Shown in pieces: positions 25,511 through 33,520 of a stretch of 64,000 bases of DNA. Numbering within the stretch: position 1 is the first letter of the stretch; every line of letters begins with the position of its first letter. A program made the translations under genes and the position numbers. Under the pieces are notes generated by a model. It searched no databases, was not told where the DNA came from, and saw nothing but the letters and a program-made list of their open reading frames with translations. The stretch is from Fidelibacterota bacterium (GTDB lineage Bacteria > Fidelibacterota > SORT01), in assembly GCA_022571215.1 (NCBI GenBank), contig JACZYG010000015.1:63-64062 (forward strand). Direction: 5' to 3'.

Positions 25511-25575
25511 AATCCCCTCTTGAGAGGGGTGGATTCGAGACTCTTTTGAGTCGAGAAGACGGGGGGTGTCAGGAG
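25511..25575. repeat. partial module-B element (hairpin plus right arm) flanking the DUF559 gene
   Basis: atcccctcttgagaggggtg is the exact reverse complement of 25973-25992 on the other side of the gene. Confidence 0.65.
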
Positions 25576-25943
25576 TTCTCAATATTTTTTATCATCCAAT
25601 CGTTTATGACTTCCACAACCGCATTTAAATTCTTTCTTACATCAGAATCCTGAAAGCGCAAAACGGTCAAAGGAATTGATTCCAAAATCTTTTGCCTTTT
25701 CATGTCCTGCTCCTGTTTATATGCATGAGTAATGCCATCAATCTCGATAACTAACCTTAAATCGGGAGAAAAGAAATCAACTATAAAGTTACCAATAGGC
25801 TTCTGCCTATGGAAATCTATTCCCATCAACTTTTTCCCTTTTAATTCATTCCAAAGCAATACCTCAGATAACGTGGAATTTTTTCTCAGCATTCGTGCTA
25901 CACGTTTTAACTTGGGATTATATTTGAGATCAATTTTTACCAT
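25569..25943 (-). CDS. DUF559 (Vsr-like endonuclease fold) domain protein
   Basis: RMLRKNSTLSEVLLWNELKGKKLMGIDFHRQKPIGNFIVDFFSPDLRLVIEIDG is the typical DUF559 core; start placed at the internal Met (MVKIDL) because the 5 upstream codons overlap a repeat module. Confidence 0.65.
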   Translation of the reverse strand: MVKIDLKYNPKLKRVARMLRKNSTLSEVLLWNELKGKKLMGIDFHRQKPIGNFIVDFFSPDLRLVIEIDGITHAYKQEQDMKRQKILESIPLTVLRFQDSDVRKNLNAVVEVINDWMIKNIENS

Positions 25944-25947
25944 GATA

Positions 25948-26018
25948 TAGTTACACACCCCGCCCTTCGGGCACCCCTCTCAAGAGGGGATCTTTTATCC
26001 CATCCTTGATGTGATATA
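25948..26018. repeat. module-B element (left arm plus hairpin plus atcccatccttgatgtgatat hairpin)
   Basis: cacaccccgcccttcgggcacccctct is identical to the 19924 copy. Confidence 0.65.
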
Positions 26019-26031
26019 TAATTCTAAAGAA

Positions 26032-27522
26032 TCAATTTCCCCGTGAATAGTTGGATAGAATAACGCCGATACGATTCTGAAGTTCGTTCGCCATACTTGT
26101 CGGGACAGCATAATTATTCACGATGAAACTGAAAATAATGTCCTCACCGTCTGCCGTCGTGATATAGCCCGACAGCGACCTGACATAACTGACGTACCCC
26201 GTCTTCGCTCTCATATTCCGTTGAGCATTGGTTCCCCGCATGCGACGACCGATACTTCCGTCAACTCCCGCTATCGGTAGAGAATCATAATAACTGTCAA
26301 AATACTTATGCCCTCTCATGTAACGCAGAAGTGTCGCTACCTGTCGGGTGCTCACAAGGTTCATCCTCGACAGTCCCGAACCGTCCACTATCTTGATACC
26401 GTTTGCATCGATACCGATTCCGCTCAAAAGGGACTTAACAGATTTAATTCCTGCACTCGCGCTCCCCTCATGATTGTATTCCCTGCCGATTGTTTTGAGC
26501 AGTTGCTCCGCGTAAAAATTCTGGCTCGATTTATTCACAGTCCGAATCATCCTGCTCATCGGCGGTGACGTATAAACCGCTACAGTTTGTAATTTATCAT
26601 AATTCGGCTTACGCTTCAGATCGTCACCGTCCTTCGCTTTTCCACCCACAGATATTCCCGCCGACTCAAAGGTTTCTTTGACAACCGTCGCCGTATAAAG
26701 AGTCGGATTTCTGACCGATATCCAATCCGTTTTCGCTTTTTTATTGATCGGAAATTTTCCCCAAAACGTAAACAGATTGCCGGCTGCCGATCTGCTGAAA
26801 TCATAATAAAGAGTAGAATCAGGCAGTGTCGTTTTAATATTATTTTTTATGGTGACGTATTTTGTCGGCGGATCGAGTTCGATAACAGCCTTATCCCCCA
26901 CATTTTCGCCCGGTTTGATACGTACTTTTACGGTATTATCATTGAACGATAGACCGCTAATGCGAGCGGAATAGTAATACGGCTCATCGTCCCAACTCCA
27001 ACCGTACCCCATAGCGACATCGTCGAAATAGTCGTCATCCCCGATGACATCTCCCGTGATTTTTCTGATGCCCATCGCTTTTAGGGAGTCAGCCCACTCC
27101 TGAAAAGTTCCTGTAATATTATTGCCGTTATACCTGCCCGAAATGGTCGGATCACCCGAACCGCGAACGATAAGATTACCGTTAAGAGTTCCATTCGAGA
27201 CGGTTCCGTCATAGTACAATCTGGTTTTATACGTGAAGTTCGGACCGAACCGAACCAACGCCGTTGCCGTGGTAAAGAGCTTTATATTGGATGCCGGAAT
27301 CAGCAGTTTATCCTCGTTATGTCTGTAAAGCACCTCCCTCGTATCAGGAGCTTCGATATAAACTCCCCAACTCGCCGAAGCGAAAGCGGGATCCGCGATG
27401 AGGTGGTCAACTTCCGCTTTGAGCCTCTCTAACGGAGTATCGTTTCCGACTTTGCCCGCCGCGCAGCCAAAAGAGATAGTTAGTAAGAATAACATTATAA
27501 TAGGCATAAACTTGTTCATCAA
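26032..27522 (-). CDS. dacB: D-alanyl-D-alanine carboxypeptidase/endopeptidase (PBP4, peptidase S13)
   Basis: Signal peptide; SxxK (PASNIKL), SxN-like and KTG (AKTGYV) motifs; 496 aa, typical of PBP4. Confidence 0.8.
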   Translation of the reverse strand: MMNKFMPIIMLFLLTISFGCAAGKVGNDTPLERLKAEVDHLIADPAFASASWGVYIEAPDTREVLYRHNEDKLLIPASNIKLFTTATALVRFGPNFTYKTRLYYDGTVSNGTLNGNLIVRGSGDPTISGRYNGNNITGTFQEWADSLKAMGIRKITGDVIGDDDYFDDVAMGYGWSWDDEPYYYSARISGLSFNDNTVKVRIKPGENVGDKAVIELDPPTKYVTIKNNIKTTLPDSTLYYDFSRSAAGNLFTFWGKFPINKKAKTDWISVRNPTLYTATVVKETFESAGISVGGKAKDGDDLKRKPNYDKLQTVAVYTSPPMSRMIRTVNKSSQNFYAEQLLKTIGREYNHEGSASAGIKSVKSLLSGIGIDANGIKIVDGSGLSRMNLVSTRQVATLLRYMRGHKYFDSYYDSLPIAGVDGSIGRRMRGTNAQRNMRAKTGYVSYVRSLSGYITTADGEDIIFSFIVNNYAVPTSMANELQNRIGVILSNYSRGN

Positions 27523-28544
27523 TCAACTCCGATAGGTTCGACTCCGATGCCCGGTTTGTCGGGGAGGAGCAGTTTTCCGTCTTTAATATCAATTCCTCTA
27601 AACGGGTCGTTAGAAAGAAGCAGGTTTCCATCGAGGTCCGCCCAATCAGCAAGCGGCGACAGATGCGCAGCCGCTCCGATAGCGATAGAACTCTCGCACA
27701 TGCAGCCGAGCATTATCTTTAATCCGTAAGAGCGCGCGGTGTGAATCATTTTCAACGCTTCAGTAGGACCTCCGCACTTCATCAACTTAATATTCAGAGC
27801 GTCAAACGCATAAGCTATCTTCGGAATGTCCTCTTTGACAATGCTATTCTCATCAGCGACTATGGGCAGAGGCGAACGTTCCTTCAGCCAGGCGGTGTCA
27901 TCCAATTTATCAGCGGGAAGCGGCTGTTCGATAAATTCAACGTTTTGTCCCGCGAGCCATTCTATCTTCTCAAGCGCTTCCTCTTTGCTCCAACCCTCAT
28001 TCGCATCAACCCGGATCGGCTTGTCGGTCAGCTCACGTATAGCCAGTATTATCTCTTTGTCGTTATCAAGACCTTGTTTTACCTTTAAAATCGGATAGAT
28101 TTCAGCCTCTTTTACCTTCTGTTTGATAACATCGATCTCGTCAATGCCTATGGTGAATGTAGAAACAAGCGATTTCATCGGGTCCAAACCCCATAAACGA
28201 TATAACGGCTGCCCCAAAAGTTTCCCCTGCAAATCCCAATACGCGATGTTTATGGCGGCGATAGCCGATGGAGTCATAAGTGGATTCGTTCGGCAAGCTG
28301 AGTCAATATCTTCCAGTTTGAACGGGTCGCTAAACGGTTCTGAGTCAAAATCGATGCTTGCGAGAGCCGCGTTCACCTTTCCGGCATCTTCGTCATACCT
28401 CAAGGTCGGAACCGCTTCACCATAGGCGGTTACACCGTTATATTCAAGTGTCAGTATAATAGAATCGTAGTGTGTCCGAGTGCTTCTAGCTATGGTAAAC
28501 GGGTGTATCAGGTTCAGTCTGACGTCTTTCCACTCCGCTTTCAA
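27519..28544 (-). CDS. enolase-superfamily dipeptide epimerase / N-acyl-amino-acid racemase-like (DgcA/YcjG-like)
   Basis: MR/MLE-type motifs KVKQG...IRVDANEGW...EQPL...; 341 aa; 4-nt overlaps with both neighbouring genes. Confidence 0.75.
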   Translation of the reverse strand: MKAEWKDVRLNLIHPFTIARSTRTHYDSIILTLEYNGVTAYGEAVPTLRYDEDAGKVNAALASIDFDSEPFSDPFKLEDIDSACRTNPLMTPSAIAAINIAYWDLQGKLLGQPLYRLWGLDPMKSLVSTFTIGIDEIDVIKQKVKEAEIYPILKVKQGLDNDKEIILAIRELTDKPIRVDANEGWSKEEALEKIEWLAGQNVEFIEQPLPADKLDDTAWLKERSPLPIVADENSIVKEDIPKIAYAFDALNIKLMKCGGPTEALKMIHTARSYGLKIMLGCMCESSIAIGAAAHLSPLADWADLDGNLLLSNDPFRGIDIKDGKLLLPDKPGIGVEPIGVD

Positions 28545-29596
28545 TTTTTCCCCCTCACGCCATCTAAAATTGCCCCTCCCAATTTATCAGGACCGAACCT
28601 TACCGGGTCATCCACCGGGAGACCCGTTTCCTCTTCCGCATCTTTAATGGCAATTCGAGCCTCATCCTCGGATAGCTCTGAGGTATCGAGACTTACTCCG
28701 ATAACATCAATCTCTCTAAAAGGTTTCATGACCGCTTTATGAAGCTCTATCGCCTCCGTCAGAGTAGGCAGGTTCGTGCCGTAATCGTTCACTTTTCTTG
28801 AAGGTTCGTGACATAGTATGATCCCGTCGGGCATCGAGCCGTGTATAAGTCCCAATGTAACACCGCTGTATCCCTGATGAAAGAGTGAACCTTGTCCCTC
28901 AATAAGCAGTAGATCAAAATCTTTATCTACTTTCATGATCTCCGATTCAATCGAACCCGCTATAAAATCACTTACTACAGCATCGACACATACTCCTTTA
29001 TCGGTAAATAGGAGACCGGTCTGTCCTGTGGCGATGAACACACTATTTAGTGTACTCTTATCCAAAAAGCCTATAAGTTGTATAAGTGTGGTCATTTTCC
29101 CGATTGCGACATCGGTTCCGACAGTGAGCAGAACATATGACGAACGTTCCCGCCACTTGTCTTCCGATACGACAAGGTCAGCTGGTGGTTTACGCAGATC
29201 AATGATCTCTACCTTATTTGCTCTTGCAGCTGCAGCGAATTCATTATCATCGTTTAGAAAAGCGTGTAATCCGCTAACTATATCAAGTCCTTCTCCTATG
29301 GCATCGAGCACTATAGGCCGCCATTCATCGGGGAGATCGCCGCCAATCGGAGCAATACCAATTAAAAGAGCGTTTGGTGAATACTTAAGAGTTTCTTGAA
29401 ACGATGAAACAACCGGTGTATCACCGCCATACCCTATCAGTTCCTCCGCGGTTTTACCCGCTTGAGTGCTGTCAATCAGCGCCGCGGCAGAATCAGGAAT
29501 GAACCTGAGCACCGCATTTGCGGTTTTTGATTCTTTCGGATTGAATTTTCCTTCCGCAAGTATGGCGTATCGGACACTGCTTCTCTTTATAGTCAA
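28541..29596 (-). CDS. DUF1611-domain protein (DgcN-like putative N-acetyltransferase)
   Basis: N-terminal Rossmann-like region (RYAILAEGKF...ALLIGIAPIGGDLP) plus a C-terminal P-loop-like domain; commonly paired with enolase-superfamily epimerases. Confidence 0.65.
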   Translation of the reverse strand: MTIKRSSVRYAILAEGKFNPKESKTANAVLRFIPDSAAALIDSTQAGKTAEELIGYGGDTPVVSSFQETLKYSPNALLIGIAPIGGDLPDEWRPIVLDAIGEGLDIVSGLHAFLNDDNEFAAAARANKVEIIDLRKPPADLVVSEDKWRERSSYVLLTVGTDVAIGKMTTLIQLIGFLDKSTLNSVFIATGQTGLLFTDKGVCVDAVVSDFIAGSIESEIMKVDKDFDLLLIEGQGSLFHQGYSGVTLGLIHGSMPDGIILCHEPSRKVNDYGTNLPTLTEAIELHKAVMKPFREIDVIGVSLDTSELSEDEARIAIKDAEEETGLPVDDPVRFGPDKLGGAILDGVRGKN

Positions 29597-30834
29597 TTAC
29601 TGACACGCTCCACGACCGTCATTATTTCATCTTTTGTGAGGATCCTATCCGACTCTTTTGCGATTCTAAATAGTTCATCCACAAGTTCATCTGACGGCTC
29701 TATATTGTTATTATTAAGCCAATAAATGACGTTTGATTTTCCCGACATCGGTCCTATATCTATAGTCTGATGTCGCCCTACCATTCCCGCCGGCACACCG
29801 GAATATATCCTATCGGCGAGCCAATCGTCGCCCTTCGATTCGGCTTTGATAACAGCCGCCGCATGAACTCCTGTCGCCGTCCTGAAAGCGTCCTCTCCAA
29901 TCACGGGATAGTTCGGAGGTAGCGGGATTCCGGTATATTCGGAAGTTTTTTGAACGTATTCGGGCAGCTTGGTCAGATCATTATTTATCAATCCTAACAG
30001 TCTGAGATTGACCAAAAGCGTGTCCATCGGGAGGTTGCCGATGCGTTCGCCTATTCCCATTGCCGTTCCGTGCACTCTGTCAACCCCCGCTTCGATAGCC
30101 GCAAGAGCGTTTGGCAGCGCCAATCCTCTATCTCTGTGACCGTGCCAGTCGAGTTTCAGATCAACGTCCTTTGACTTGAGGTACTCCCTTGTCCAGTTCA
30201 CGAGGTTTTTAACTCCTTCAGGAGTCGCATGACCGCATGTGTCACATAGACAAAGCCGCGCCGCGCCTGAGTCTATGGCGGCATCAAAAAGTGTTTTGAG
30301 AGTATCGGGGGTCGCGCGAACCGTATCCTCGGTAACGAACATGACAGGTAAGCCTTCTTTCACGGCAAAACTAACGGACTCCACAGTGTGACTCACCATC
30401 TTCTCCAAGGTCCATTCCTCTGCGTATACGCGAATCGGACTGCTTCCTATGAACGTGCAAACTTCGACCGGCAGCCCCACTTTCTGAGAAATTTCGACCA
30501 CCGGAGTAACATCAGCAATAAGAGTCCGAGCGGCGCAATTCGGAGTTATGTTCATCTTGTTGTCCGCTATTTCCTTGACGAGAGCGAGAACGTCTTCTCT
30601 TGCTCTCGGTCCCGCGCCCGGAAGACCGACATCCGCCGTATGAATACCAAGCTCTTCCATCAGGTGCAGCAGTTCTTTCTTCTGCCCGATTGTCGGGTCC
30701 TGAACGGATGGCGATTGAAGACCGTCACGCAAGGTCTCATCGTCAAATTCTATATCTATAAGCCCTGACGGACTGGAATTCCCCTCCGTGTTCCAATCGT
30801 ATATAAGCTCGCCGATATCTTTCTCATCACTCAT
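29593..30834 (-). CDS. DRE-TIM metallolyase, 2-isopropylmalate/homocitrate/citramalate synthase-like (HMGL-like) protein
   Basis: ETLRDGLQ..., HGHRDRGLALPNALAAIEAGVDRVHGTAMGIGERIGN (HxH metal motif); 413 aa, without the LeuA regulatory domain. Confidence 0.7.
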   Translation of the reverse strand: MSDEKDIGELIYDWNTEGNSSPSGLIDIEFDDETLRDGLQSPSVQDPTIGQKKELLHLMEELGIHTADVGLPGAGPRAREDVLALVKEIADNKMNITPNCAARTLIADVTPVVEISQKVGLPVEVCTFIGSSPIRVYAEEWTLEKMVSHTVESVSFAVKEGLPVMFVTEDTVRATPDTLKTLFDAAIDSGAARLCLCDTCGHATPEGVKNLVNWTREYLKSKDVDLKLDWHGHRDRGLALPNALAAIEAGVDRVHGTAMGIGERIGNLPMDTLLVNLRLLGLINNDLTKLPEYVQKTSEYTGIPLPPNYPVIGEDAFRTATGVHAAAVIKAESKGDDWLADRIYSGVPAGMVGRHQTIDIGPMSGKSNVIYWLNNNNIEPSDELVDELFRIAKESDRILTKDEIMTVVERVSN

Positions 30835-30849
30835 CAGAAGTGTCCTCTC

Positions 30850-31644
30850 TCAGCTGCCTTTGAATTTCGGCTCTCTTTTCCCAAGAAACGCATTCATACC
30901 TTCTTTCATATCTTCTGTTCCGCAAAGAATCCCGAACCGGTCGGATTCTATTGCAAGTCCTTCGTCAAGCGTCATGTTCATCCCTCTGTTGACAGCTTCG
31001 ATACACATTTTTATAGAAACAGGCGCTTTGGATAGAATAACTTTCATCATTTCTATTGCTGATTCAAGGGATTTACCTTCAGGCACCACTTTACTTAATA
31101 GTCCAATATCCATTGCTTCTTGAGCGCTTATGGTTTTTCCTGTGAGTATAAGTTCCAAAGCTCTTGAACTGCCGATCAGCCGTGGAAGCCGCTGCGAACC
31201 GCCAAATCCGGGCATGATCCCAAGTCCTACCTCCGGCAGTCCCATCTTCGCGTTTTCCGCCGCAATACGGATATGACATCCAAGAGCGAGCTCGAACCCG
31301 CCGCCGAGGGCATAACCGTTTATTGCCGCTATTACCGGTTTTCCCATTAGCTCAAGGACTTGTAGAGTCTCCTGTCCCCGAATGGATGTTTCTCTTCCAC
31401 TCAAAACGCTTTCCCTTGCAAGCTCGTTTATATCAGCGCCCGCCACGAATGCCTTCTCACCCATTCCGGTAATTATCATACCGCCTATCGAACTGTCGTC
31501 TCTAACGGAGAGCGCAGCTGCCTTTAGCTCTTTGACGGTCTCTTGATTCAGCGCATTCATAACTTCCGGACGGTTTACGGTCACAACCGCAATTTTATCT
31601 TTCACTTCAAACAGCAAATTTTTATACGGCATCTTTTCTCCCAA
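30850..31644 (-). CDS. enoyl-CoA hydratase/isomerase (crotonase family)
   Basis: AFVAGADINE...INGYALGGGFELALGCHIRIA oxyanion-hole motifs; 264 aa. Confidence 0.85.
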   Translation of the reverse strand: MGEKMPYKNLLFEVKDKIAVVTVNRPEVMNALNQETVKELKAAALSVRDDSSIGGMIITGMGEKAFVAGADINELARESVLSGRETSIRGQETLQVLELMGKPVIAAINGYALGGGFELALGCHIRIAAENAKMGLPEVGLGIMPGFGGSQRLPRLIGSSRALELILTGKTISAQEAMDIGLLSKVVPEGKSLESAIEMMKVILSKAPVSIKMCIEAVNRGMNMTLDEGLAIESDRFGILCGTEDMKEGMNAFLGKREPKFKGS

Positions 31645-31647
31645 TTC

Positions 31648-33093
31648 TCATTTTCTCTTCCAGAAAGTCCTGCTAAACAATACTATAACGGTAAAAAGTT
31701 CAAGTCTTCCAAGAAGCATACAAAAGTTCAAAAGCAATTTAGCCGCCGCCGGCAGATGGGAATAATTGTCCGTTGGTCCTAAACTCCCGAGGGCGGGACC
31801 AATATTGCCGAGAGCTGACGCGGTTACCGAGACGGCGCTGACTATATCCAACCCCAATCCTGCCATAATAATGCTTACCGCAACGAAAATAGCCATATAA
31901 AATAAGAAAAAACCGAGAACGTTTTTTATAATGTCATCTGATATTATCCGGTCGCCCAATTTAACGGGATAGACAGCGGTCGGATGAACCAGCTTCCTTA
32001 TCTCATATACGGCGTGCTTAAAAAGGATAACCACTCTTATCACCTTCATTGAACCGCCCGTTGAACTTGCGCAAGCTCCTACAAACATCAATGCGACTAT
32101 CAATAATTGTCCTACCGGCAGCCAAAGTTCATAATCCGCGGTTATATAACCGGTTGTGGTCACTATAGAGACTACCTGAAAGAGAGAATGTCTCAATGCC
32201 AATTCGGGGGAGATTGTTTCACTCAGATATACGATTCCGAGAACAATAACGGTGATAACAGAAATTATGCCTAAATAAAATTTGAATTCCTTATCATGTA
32301 TATGCGCTTTGATATCTCCATTGAACATTCGGAAATGAAGAGCGAAATTCGAACCCGCAAGAATCATAAAAAATATTATCACATAATCGAAATATGCGCT
32401 GTTGTAGTGCGCTATGCTCGCATTCTTGGTCGAAAATCCTCCGGTTGCCATCGTACCGAAAGTATGACAGACGGAATCGAAGAGATCCATGCCACCCGCC
32501 CAAAGCATCGTGGCTTCAACAACGCTTATGAGTATGTATGTGATCCATAACAATTTTGCCGTCTCTCTAATCCGGGGAGTAAAACGGTCTTTCGTAGGAC
32601 CGGGCGCTTCCGCCTTGAAAAGTTGTGAAGCCCCTATGCCCAACATCGGTAATATCGCAAGAGAAAAGACTATAATGCCCATCCCTCCGAGCCAATGAGT
32701 CAGAGAGCGCCAGAAAAGTATACCATGAGGTAACGCCTCTATATCGGTGAGAATAGAGGCTCCGGTCGTCGTAAATCCCGACATCGACTCAAAAAATGCG
32801 TCTACCGGAGACTGTATCGCGGAAGACAAGAGAAAAGGAAGCATTCCGAATAAAGCGCTCGTTATCCAGCCGAACGTTACTATGGCGAAACCGTCTCTAA
32901 CCCTGATATCAGAGCCGCCCCGGGTACTTACCCATAGAAGGAATCCTGTACCGATGGTTATTCCCGCCGATAGAAGAATAGCTTTTGTATCACCGTCACC
33001 GTAGTAAATGGAAAAAGGCAGCGCGAGAAGCATTGTTGTCCCGAGGAAGATCCATAACGCCCCGAGAACATTTAATATTTGTTTCAGATGCAT
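31648..33093 (-). CDS. trkH: TrkH/KtrB-family K+ uptake permease
   Basis: Repeated M-P-M segments with selectivity-filter-like MSGFTTTGAS and TTTGY; 481 aa. Confidence 0.9.
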   Translation of the reverse strand: MHLKQILNVLGALWIFLGTTMLLALPFSIYYGDGDTKAILLSAGITIGTGFLLWVSTRGGSDIRVRDGFAIVTFGWITSALFGMLPFLLSSAIQSPVDAFFESMSGFTTTGASILTDIEALPHGILFWRSLTHWLGGMGIIVFSLAILPMLGIGASQLFKAEAPGPTKDRFTPRIRETAKLLWITYILISVVEATMLWAGGMDLFDSVCHTFGTMATGGFSTKNASIAHYNSAYFDYVIIFFMILAGSNFALHFRMFNGDIKAHIHDKEFKFYLGIISVITVIVLGIVYLSETISPELALRHSLFQVVSIVTTTGYITADYELWLPVGQLLIVALMFVGACASSTGGSMKVIRVVILFKHAVYEIRKLVHPTAVYPVKLGDRIISDDIIKNVLGFFLFYMAIFVAVSIIMAGLGLDIVSAVSVTASALGNIGPALGSLGPTDNYSHLPAAAKLLLNFCMLLGRLELFTVIVLFSRTFWKRK

Positions 33094-33111
33094 TTTACAT
33101 ACTCAACCGTA

Positions 33112-33190
33112 GTCATTCCGAACCTTGATTTATCGAAGTGAAAGAATCTCATATTTATCCAATCGGTAGTATGAGATTGCCCGCCTGTCA
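33112..33190. repeat. MITE-like element (gtcattccgaaccttgatttatcgaagtgaaagaatctcat...atgagattgcc)
   Basis: Same architecture as 22388-22485, 23311 and 36576. Confidence 0.55.
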
Positions 33191-33230
33191 GTCGGAGTGT
33201 ATGATCGCCTTTTACGTTAACGGCCCTTTT

Positions 33231-33283
33231 GGAGTGCATTGACTGTGTCAATGCCGCATCAACATAGTTGATGCACTCCATAT
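33231..33283. repeat. 53-bp nested-palindrome element, copy 2
   Basis: ggagtgcattgactgtgtcaatgccgcatcaacatagttgatgcactccatat. Confidence 0.8.
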
Positions 33284-33520
33284 AAAAACACGCCGTCTTC
33301 TCATCCCTTAGGGATTTGAATCCTCCATAGGAGTTCCTTCGGAACACCCCTCTTGATGAGGGAAATTTCTCCTTCCATCCTTTAATAAAGGAAGGAAACG
33401 TCATCGTCAATTTCATATTTTCATGTTGCCTCGGCTCTGATTAAACCAGAGAACTCTATAGTGTATTGCAGTGTTTATCAGGCAGTAGTATAATTCATCT
33501 AAAGTAAAATATTAATATTA

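Follow-up and report, generated by a model that had tools for sequence, protein, structure and literature searches.

A DUF1611-epimerase gene pair in Marinisomatota as a likely diverged variant of the D-glutamate salvage module

In the N-succinylamino-acid racemase (NSAR) route of Geobacillus, an acyltransferase, an enolase-superfamily racemase and an M20 deacylase together convert D- to L-amino acids irreversibly. The 64,000-nucleotide stretch of DNA analysed here (hereafter the window; positions 63 to 64,062 of contig JACZYG010000015.1, assembly GCA_022571215.1) comes from a Marinisomatota (Marinimicrobia/SAR406) genome assembly of 2.56 Mb that is 96.7% complete, and at 26032-31644 on its minus strand it holds a string of genes in which a DUF1611 protein and an enolase-superfamily epimerase, the subjects of this report, are encoded side by side. 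The logic that we propose below for this pair is that of the Geobacillus route (the D-amino acid is acylated, an enolase-superfamily enzyme racemises its N-acyl form, and the acyl group is then removed), although the acyltransferase of that route is a GNAT protein rather than a DUF1611 protein, and its racemase belongs to the o-succinylbenzoate synthase (OSBS)/NSAR group, which the epimerase here does not match. Closer in gene content is the DgcN-DgcA system, composed of the D-glutamate N-acetyltransferase DgcN (EC 2.3.1.312) and the N-acetyl-D-glutamate racemase DgcA (EC 5.1.1.25), described by Yu et al. (ISME J 2023), as cited in PMC10845958, PMC11747546 and PMC12363236. Marinisomatia are already listed as dgcN carriers in Mariana Trench metagenomes (PMC12363236), and the general idea of a D-glutamate pair in Marinisomatota is therefore not new. 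Another point of comparison is the proposed murein-peptide pathway of Bacteroides, in which the dipeptide epimerase BT1313 adjoins BT1314, a YkfC amidase acting on gamma-D-Glu-A2pm (A2pm, diaminopimelate) (PMC4600125).

The two genes of the pair are, in the order of transcription:

28541-29596, minus strand: DUF1611 protein with a Rossmann-like N domain (PF17396) and a P-loop-like C domain (PF07755)
27519-28544, minus strand: enolase-superfamily epimerase (MR_MLE_N and MR_MLE_C) of the BT1313 dipeptide-epimerase type, cytoplasmic, with predicted N-acyl- or aminoacyl-D/L-Glu specificity

The pairing of a DUF1611 gene with an enolase-superfamily epimerase, singled out in the original prediction, recurs throughout the phylum. 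Our survey covered 151 genomes in 25 families, namely the window's own family, f1 (6 genomes), and 24 others (145 genomes); DUF1611 was found in 57 genomes and the epimerase in 114. By coordinate comparison, the epimerase is present in 54 of the 57 DUF1611-bearing genomes, and the two genes are directly adjacent in 48, always in the order DUF1611 then epimerase, and lie within 2 kb of each other in three more. As for the three genomes in which no epimerase was matched, two have DUF1611 at a contig end and the third carries only a distant DUF1611 paralog. The order of the genes on one strand and their stop/start coupling match the PGAP-annotated dgcN-dgcA of Pantoea and Vibrio, and the DUF1611 clade and the epimerase each carry features of that system, described below. 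The pair is most likely the sole functional two-gene module in the string, and a diverged variant of the known D-Glu salvage module. The dgcN-dgcA genes annotated on plasmid pMA35 of Vibrio tritonius (locus L161, 3845-8813) have an alanine racemase upstream and are followed by genes for a D-amino-acid transaminase, a mechanosensitive channel, and TrkA and TrkH family proteins; this trk adjacency echoes the Marinisomatota order described below, and may be a coincidence or may reflect a link between K+ and glutamate.

The DUF1611 protein has the two-domain architecture of DgcN, with matches of 103 bits to PF17396 (DUF1611_N) and 216 bits to PF07755 (DUF1611_C). Its matches in the Protein Data Bank are 2OBN, 7XRJ and 2G0T, and it retains the core motifs common to 7XRJ and 2OBN. 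Identity to annotated DgcN of Pantoea, Vibrio and Sinorhizobium is 39-41% and extends over no more than the C-terminal ~270 residues; with DUF1611 proteins of Bacteroidota and Longimicrobium it reaches 49%. Close homologs are named by NCBI only 'DUF1611 domain-containing protein'. Phylogenetic analysis placed its clade outside DgcN, as sister to a group of DgcN plus a Burkholderia DUF1611 protein (support 97*). From these comparisons, the protein would represent a sister subfamily of the D-Glu N-acetyltransferase DgcN rather than a strict ortholog.

The closest solved relative of the epimerase is the dipeptide epimerase BT1313 of Bacteroides thetaiotaomicron (3IJI/3IJL/3IJQ), matched over its full length at 314 bits. 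HMMER alignment to the L-Ala-D-Glu epimerase structure 3IJI showed conservation of the acid/base pair (KxK and the second Lys), the D/E/D metal ligands, the DxD motif and the 20s-loop Arg that serves the Glu side chain; the catalytic motifs and this Glu-type Arg are kept here as they are in DgcA. FCB-group proteins listed by NCBI as 'dipeptide epimerase' share 53-55% identity with the window's protein. Assignment to the OSBS or muconate cycloisomerase subgroups, which would have undercut the predicted role, is not indicated: the menC model gave 96 bits against a cut-off of 201 and the muconate cycloisomerase model 102 against 335, both far weaker than the dipeptide-epimerase matches. The equivalog models for YcjG and the Thermotoga dipeptide epimerase were not reached either (158 vs 343 and 124 vs 500 bits), as expected for a member of a different subclade.

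Marinisomatota encode two forms of this epimerase. The phylum-wide epimerase tree separates a second clade, comprising the YkfC-linked and otherwise unlinked forms, from those that are DUF1611-linked or trk-syntenic, with support of 91/87. Twin-arginine (Tat) signal peptides are found in nearly all epimerases of the second clade, whereas none was found in the DUF1611-linked epimerases, the window's included; the linked form would thus act in the cytoplasm, where acyl-CoA is available, and the Tat-exported form is predicted to act in the periplasm on murein peptides. In families f13, f20, f25 and f9, epimerases with Tat signals lie beside a YkfC-like NlpC/P60 + SH3 amidase (L147:6019-8427, L148:4793-7093, L153, L149 and L151), and the same loci also hold a GNAT protein and a pyridoxal-phosphate-dependent (PALP) enzyme. 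These loci have the look of a periplasmic murein-peptide module akin to that of BT1313 and BT1314.

Given the observed gene order, protein families, phyletic and neighbourhood patterns, and signal peptides, we infer substrates and chemistry as follows. We think it reasonably likely that the cytoplasmic pair converts N-acyl-D-Glu to N-acyl-L-Glu, in the manner of DgcN and DgcA, and that the other genes of the string are mere neighbours. The DUF1611 protein would first N-acylate D-Glu with acyl-CoA, after which the epimerase would invert the alpha-carbon of Glu in the N-acyl-D-Glu; judging from its family, the acyl group could be acetyl, or L-alanyl in the case of a murein dipeptide, and the enzyme probably accepts L-Ala-D-Glu too. 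L-Glu would finally be freed by an unlinked hydrolase, for example one of the M20 peptidases, at least five of which are encoded elsewhere in the genome. The D-Glu that enters this route is probably recovered from cell-wall debris.

The pair is embedded in a tight string of six genes, trkH-crotonase-LeuA-like-DUF1611-epimerase-PBP4, whose other members are:

31648-33093, minus strand: trkH, for K+ uptake (Pfam TrkH, 246 bits); first gene of the tight six-gene string and outside the D-Glu module
30850-31632, minus strand: crotonase, a short-chain enoyl-CoA hydratase (ECH_1, 238 bits), with its likely start at the ATG at 31632
29593-30834, minus strand: short LeuA-family (DRE-TIM) Claisen-type synthase of 413 aa (HMGL-like, 138 bits), with no regulatory domain
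26032-27519, minus strand: PBP4-type DD-carboxypeptidase/endopeptidase (Peptidase_S13; TIGR00666, 330 bits), exported, probable lipoprotein
25973-25992, strand unassigned: G+C-rich palindrome 3' of the PBP4 stop, a repeat arm bracketing a DUF559 gene and a possible end of the transcription unit

All five minus-strand open reading frames (ORFs) that had been predicted between 26032 and 31644 were found at those positions, and searches of Pfam and NCBIfam bore out the family proposed for each protein (crotonase, short LeuA family, DUF1611, enolase superfamily and PBP4). Most of the string follows a gene order that runs through the phylum: recN, a murA-like gene, a beta-eliminating lyase gene, trkA, trkH, (crotonase), (DUF1611), epimerase, (PBP4), a gene for a 135-aa glyoxalase-fold protein, and uvrC, where brackets mark optional genes. 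The crotonase occupies its position in f1, f3, f9, f19 and f22, and PBP4 follows the epimerase in f1, f3 and f11 only. In three genomes (L152, L154 and L155) the backbone and the epimerase are kept while DUF1611 is missing from its place, and in L154 PBP4 again follows the epimerase. Since this backbone also holds genes for K+ transport and DNA repair, the conserved order is no evidence of a shared pathway, and the crotonase and PBP4 are neighbours of the pair through phylum-wide gene order rather than steps of its pathway. PBP4 had been proposed as a partner in a peptidoglycan theme, and its position after the epimerase in three families does fit such a theme loosely, but it is a neighbour only in those families. 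The protein passed its equivalog model (TIGR00666, cut-off 108 bits), and its translation, read by eye, contains the SxxK, SxN and KTG motifs and an N-terminal hydrophobic signal with a Cys; it is predicted to be an ordinary periplasmic DD-peptidase.

Of the alternative divisions of the string, one leaves the pair untouched and groups the crotonase with the LeuA-like gene, as a separate two-gene module that entered f1 by lateral transfer, replaced the resident crotonase, and links acetyl-CoA from beta-oxidation or butyryl-CoA metabolism to 2-oxoacid condensation. We searched GTDB genomes for homologs of the LeuA-like protein, which yielded more than 587 relatives, and took the best 80 loci with up to 10 kb of each flank, in which neighbours were sought by tblastn. 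Eighteen of these 80 loci, from several phyla, have a crotonase ortholog (46-56% identity) no more than ~6 kb from the LeuA-like gene, and in eight of them it is directly upstream on the same strand, often with genes for thiolase and 3-hydroxybutyryl-CoA dehydrogenase (HBD); the remaining 62 loci have no nearby crotonase. Crotonase orthologs of other phyla, in the same range of identity, occur in thiolase/HBD/crotonase clusters, some of them beside a LeuA-like gene. Moreover, the f1 crotonase groups in the tree with those of Acidobacteriota, Eisenbacteria and Planctomycetota rather than with those of other Marinisomatota (86/95), but this grouping is not strongly supported, since its values fall short of the star thresholds and the clade of other Marinisomatota crotonases reached only 83/47. 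In the tree of LeuA-like proteins f1 falls in an unresolved polytomy that points to no donor, the composition of the genes is not distinctive, and a crotonase sits at the same position in families that have no LeuA-like gene. Thus, co-transfer of the crotonase with the LeuA-like gene is suggestive only, and a joint module of this kind is possible but doubtful. The crotonase itself shows both catalytic Glu motifs in its translation and has the ECH_1 fold; the PRK05809 model was not reached (319 bits, cut-off 394), and we predict an ordinary Crt-type enzyme.

A second alternative bears directly on the pair, and several observations that weigh against the N-acyl-Glu route are best considered with it. 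Neither protein qualifies as a strict ortholog of its DgcN or DgcA counterpart, as the labels of the original prediction might imply: the DUF1611 protein scored 251 bits on the DgcN model NF041892 (cut-off 480), and the epimerase, only 32-34% identical to the PGAP-annotated DgcA of Pantoea and Vibrio, had the DgcA model NF042940 as its top NCBIfam match at 232 bits, short of the cut-off of 400. A Tat-exported, YkfC-linked epimerase from a genome family that lacks DUF1611 reached 207 bits on the same DgcA model, so that a sub-threshold score of this kind is generic to the clade and not discriminating. The window's epimerase is far nearer to BT1313, a characterised L-Ala-D/L-Glu epimerase from a DUF1611-less genome, than to annotated DgcA. 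In 60 genomes of the phylum the epimerase is present and DUF1611 was not found, which indicates that the epimerase has a role independent of DUF1611. No deacylase or dipeptidase gene adjoins the pair, and no ArgB above the cut-off was found in the 96.7% complete genome, which makes it unlikely that N-acetyl-L-Glu feeds arginine synthesis. Finally, the order crotonase-DUF1611-epimerase-PBP4 is kept between families whose proteins are only 41-47% identical, and some functional coupling of the crotonase and PBP4 neighbours to the pair may exist after all.

In this alternative, the epimerase would simply be an L-Ala-D/L-Glu dipeptide epimerase of murein-peptide recycling, like BT1313 or YkfB of B. 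subtilis, with PBP4 as a related neighbour and DUF1611 in some other role, for instance on the dipeptide, on another D-amino acid, or in a P-loop ligase-type step. The BT1313 structure that is its best solved relative was determined with L-Ala-D-Glu bound, 'dipeptide epimerase' is the NCBI name of its close homologs, and a control search of the B. thetaiotaomicron genome found no DUF1611. Sister epimerases of the phylum adjoin a YkfC-like NlpC/P60 protein, as BT1313 adjoins its amidase, and PBP4 follows the epimerase even at locus L154, which has no DUF1611. Other DUF1611 paralogs of the phylum pair with a racemase resembling ornithine racemase (Orr), from which it follows that the partners of DUF1611 are not bound to one substrate. 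However, none of the DUF1611-linked epimerases at the loci examined has a murein peptidase of the YkfC, MpaA or LdcA type beside it, and they are cytoplasmic, whereas the YkfC-linked forms are Tat-exported and fall in the separate clade. Unlike the Bacteroides module, the locus here has DUF1611 as the partner of the epimerase and no YkfC-like gene, even though the epimerases of the two systems match over their full length and share aligned active-site motifs. Furthermore, the only DUF1611 proteins to have been characterised, which fall in the sister group of the clade here, are N-acetyltransferases, and the near-obligate adjacency of DUF1611 to the epimerase calls for a relation of substrate to product. 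We therefore regard a plain dipeptide epimerase as an unlikely, if serious, competitor to the conversion of N-acyl-D-Glu by the pair, a predicted activity that we prefer despite the differences from DgcN-DgcA set out above: both proteins fall below equivalog cut-offs, and the epimerase lies in the BT1313 clade.

The Orr-like partner was seen at three loci (L158:4966-7781, L157:3165-5980 and L129:8037-10852), each of which encodes a second DUF1611 subfamily, ~36% identical to the window's protein, immediately followed by a 579-aa protein whose N-terminal 350 residues match Orr at 394 bits (cut-off 480). DUF1611 proteins thus seem to pair with different racemase folds.

The original prediction had joined all five genes in a single salvage pathway, in which PBP4 would release peptides or D-amino acids, DUF1611 and the epimerase would convert them, and the LeuA-like enzyme and crotonase would channel the released carbon through an acyl-CoA/keto-acid route; this pathway would have been new if true, but it is not supported and we consider it highly improbable. 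The five genes are indeed joined by start/stop coupling or gaps of at most 15 nt, the arrangement is conserved in the other f1 genomes searched, and all but the LeuA-like gene keep their order in f3. As a set of five, however, they are co-conserved only within f1, and conservation beyond that was what the proposal depended on. The LeuA-like ortholog, present in five of the six f1 genomes, was not found in any of the 145 genomes outside f1 (24 families), 52 of which carry DUF1611, and within up to 10 kb on each side of the 80 best LeuA-like loci of other phyla tblastn found neither DUF1611 nor the epimerase. No link was seen between carbon freed from D-Glu or murein peptides and either the LeuA-like enzyme or the crotonase, and no chemistry connects L-Glu or N-acyl-Glu to the crotonase. 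PBP4 is periplasmic, and its products (D-Ala and cleaved cross-links) are not substrates of the pair. Gene order alone is no pathway indicator either, given that trkH is joined to the string equally tightly and that the same order runs on into recN, the murA-like gene and uvrC.

The distinction between the conversion of N-acyl-D-Glu and other roles for the pair matters for how environmental surveys are read. Peptidoglycan-derived D-glutamate belongs to the pool of slowly degraded organic nitrogen in the deep ocean, where Marinisomatota are abundant, and metagenome surveys count their DUF1611 genes as dgcN. As the DUF1611 protein lies in a subfamily sister to DgcN and its partner is of the BT1313 type, with both below curated cut-offs, such counts rest on a presumed transfer of function. 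The presence of two epimerase forms in one phylum, one cytoplasmic and DUF1611-linked and the other Tat-exported and YkfC-linked, offers a clean pair with which to probe what DUF1611 adds. Searches with three of the proteins returned close homologs from Candidatus Marinimicrobia, including a single-cell genome from the Mariana Trench.

Within the phylum, the LeuA-like gene is inserted between the crotonase and DUF1611 genes in f1 alone, and the substrate of its product is the most interesting loose end of the locus. The protein keeps the HMGL-like TIM barrel and the invariant RDG..Q motif, HxH motif and downstream His of Claisen-condensing DRE-TIM enzymes; its best solved relative is the homocitrate synthase 6KTQ (134 bits), and it is 55-63% identical to proteins of Acidobacteriota, Gemmatimonadota, Zixibacteria, Eisenbacteria, Planctomycetota, Chloroflexota and others. 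Although the fold and invariant motifs are those of the LeuA/CimA/homocitrate synthase family, the protein has no LeuA_dimer (regulatory) domain, the usual pathway roles fit it poorly, and its recurrent neighbours are beta-oxidation genes. No NCBIfam equivalog cut-off was reached, the best match being the subfamily model NF002085 (206 vs 517 bits); the ESM Atlas returned only generic '2-isopropylmalate synthase family' clusters, and no relevant report of a characterised short enzyme of this type came up in the literature search. The genome has no other HMGL-like gene, and the familiar identities were considered in turn. A role in leucine or isoleucine synthesis was set aside because IlvD was not matched in the 96.7% complete genome, that of an alpha-aminoadipate-pathway homocitrate synthase because LysA is present and LysX below cut-off, and that of a Re-citrate synthase because the genome has a normal citrate synthase. 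The lack of an IlvD match and of an ArgB above the cut-off suggests that the organism can synthesise neither arginine nor branched-chain amino acids. LeuCD/HacAB-like genes and five Iso_dh genes occur elsewhere in the genome.

Among the 80 loci of other phyla, the recurrent neighbours of the LeuA-like gene encode thiolase, HBD, archaeal-type LeuC/LeuD-like subunits, or an M20 peptidase. We tentatively suggest, as a less than probable reading, that this widespread orthogroup comprises acetyl-CoA:2-oxoacid condensing enzymes tied to the crotonase/thiolase/HBD set, outside leucine, isoleucine and lysine synthesis. PBP4 was present in only five of the 80 loci, at a distance of 4-7 kb and on the opposite strand. 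In Acidobacteriota loci (L038, L046, L065, L066, L071-L073, L076 and L077, from Pyrinomonadaceae/Blastocatellia, and L018), the LeuA-like gene is immediately followed by that of an M20 (DapE/ArgE-like) peptidase, with a PBP4 homolog 4-7 kb downstream on the opposite strand. When five LeuA-like-bearing genomes of other phyla were searched with the window's DUF1611 protein, one gave a match, 3.9 Mb from its LeuA-like gene and with no adjoining epimerase. Elsewhere in the window's own genome, a cluster on another contig (C27:78354-89749, locus L131) encodes succinyl-CoA-ligase-like subunits, citryl-CoA lyase (281 bits, above cut-off), HacA/LeuC-like and HacB/LeuD-like subunits, a homoisocitrate/isopropylmalate-dehydrogenase-like protein and an MmgE/PrpD-family protein; this cluster might be the downstream partner of the LeuA-like enzyme.

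Reading of the DNA also refined the junctions of the string. The three predicted 4-nt overlaps are present, but they read TTGA (a TTG start over a TGA stop) rather than ATGA. PBP4 more likely starts one codon downstream, at the ATG at 27519, which shares 1 nt with the stop of the epimerase gene; relatives show ATGA at this junction. The longest ORF of the crotonase extends to a TTG at 31644, from which a 3-bp distance to the end of trkH had been derived. However, GGGAG precedes the ATG at 31632 and the same ATG start is conserved in relatives, making it the most likely start; the gap between trkH and the crotonase is then 15 nt rather than 3, which places trkH in the same tight string, with every gap among the six genes at most 15 nt. 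Start/stop overlaps or abutments are retained in two further f1 genomes, some as true ATGA or TAATG. Tight packing is common in small genomes such as this one and is alone no proof of a shared pathway. A scan for sigma-70 consensus promoters and terminators gave nothing usable within the string, although that consensus may not apply to this phylum; the palindrome beyond PBP4 gave a terminator-like match on the plus strand only.

Directly 3' of PBP4, at 25511-25992 of the window, a DUF559 (Vsr-like) gene is bracketed by the arms of the G+C-rich palindromic repeat. At the other end of the string, the spacer between trkA and trkH is filled with repeats and contains an ORF of 110 aa (33084-33416) that matches neither Pfam nor NCBIfam and is unlikely to be a gene; in f1 relatives, 40-45 nt separate trkA from trkH.

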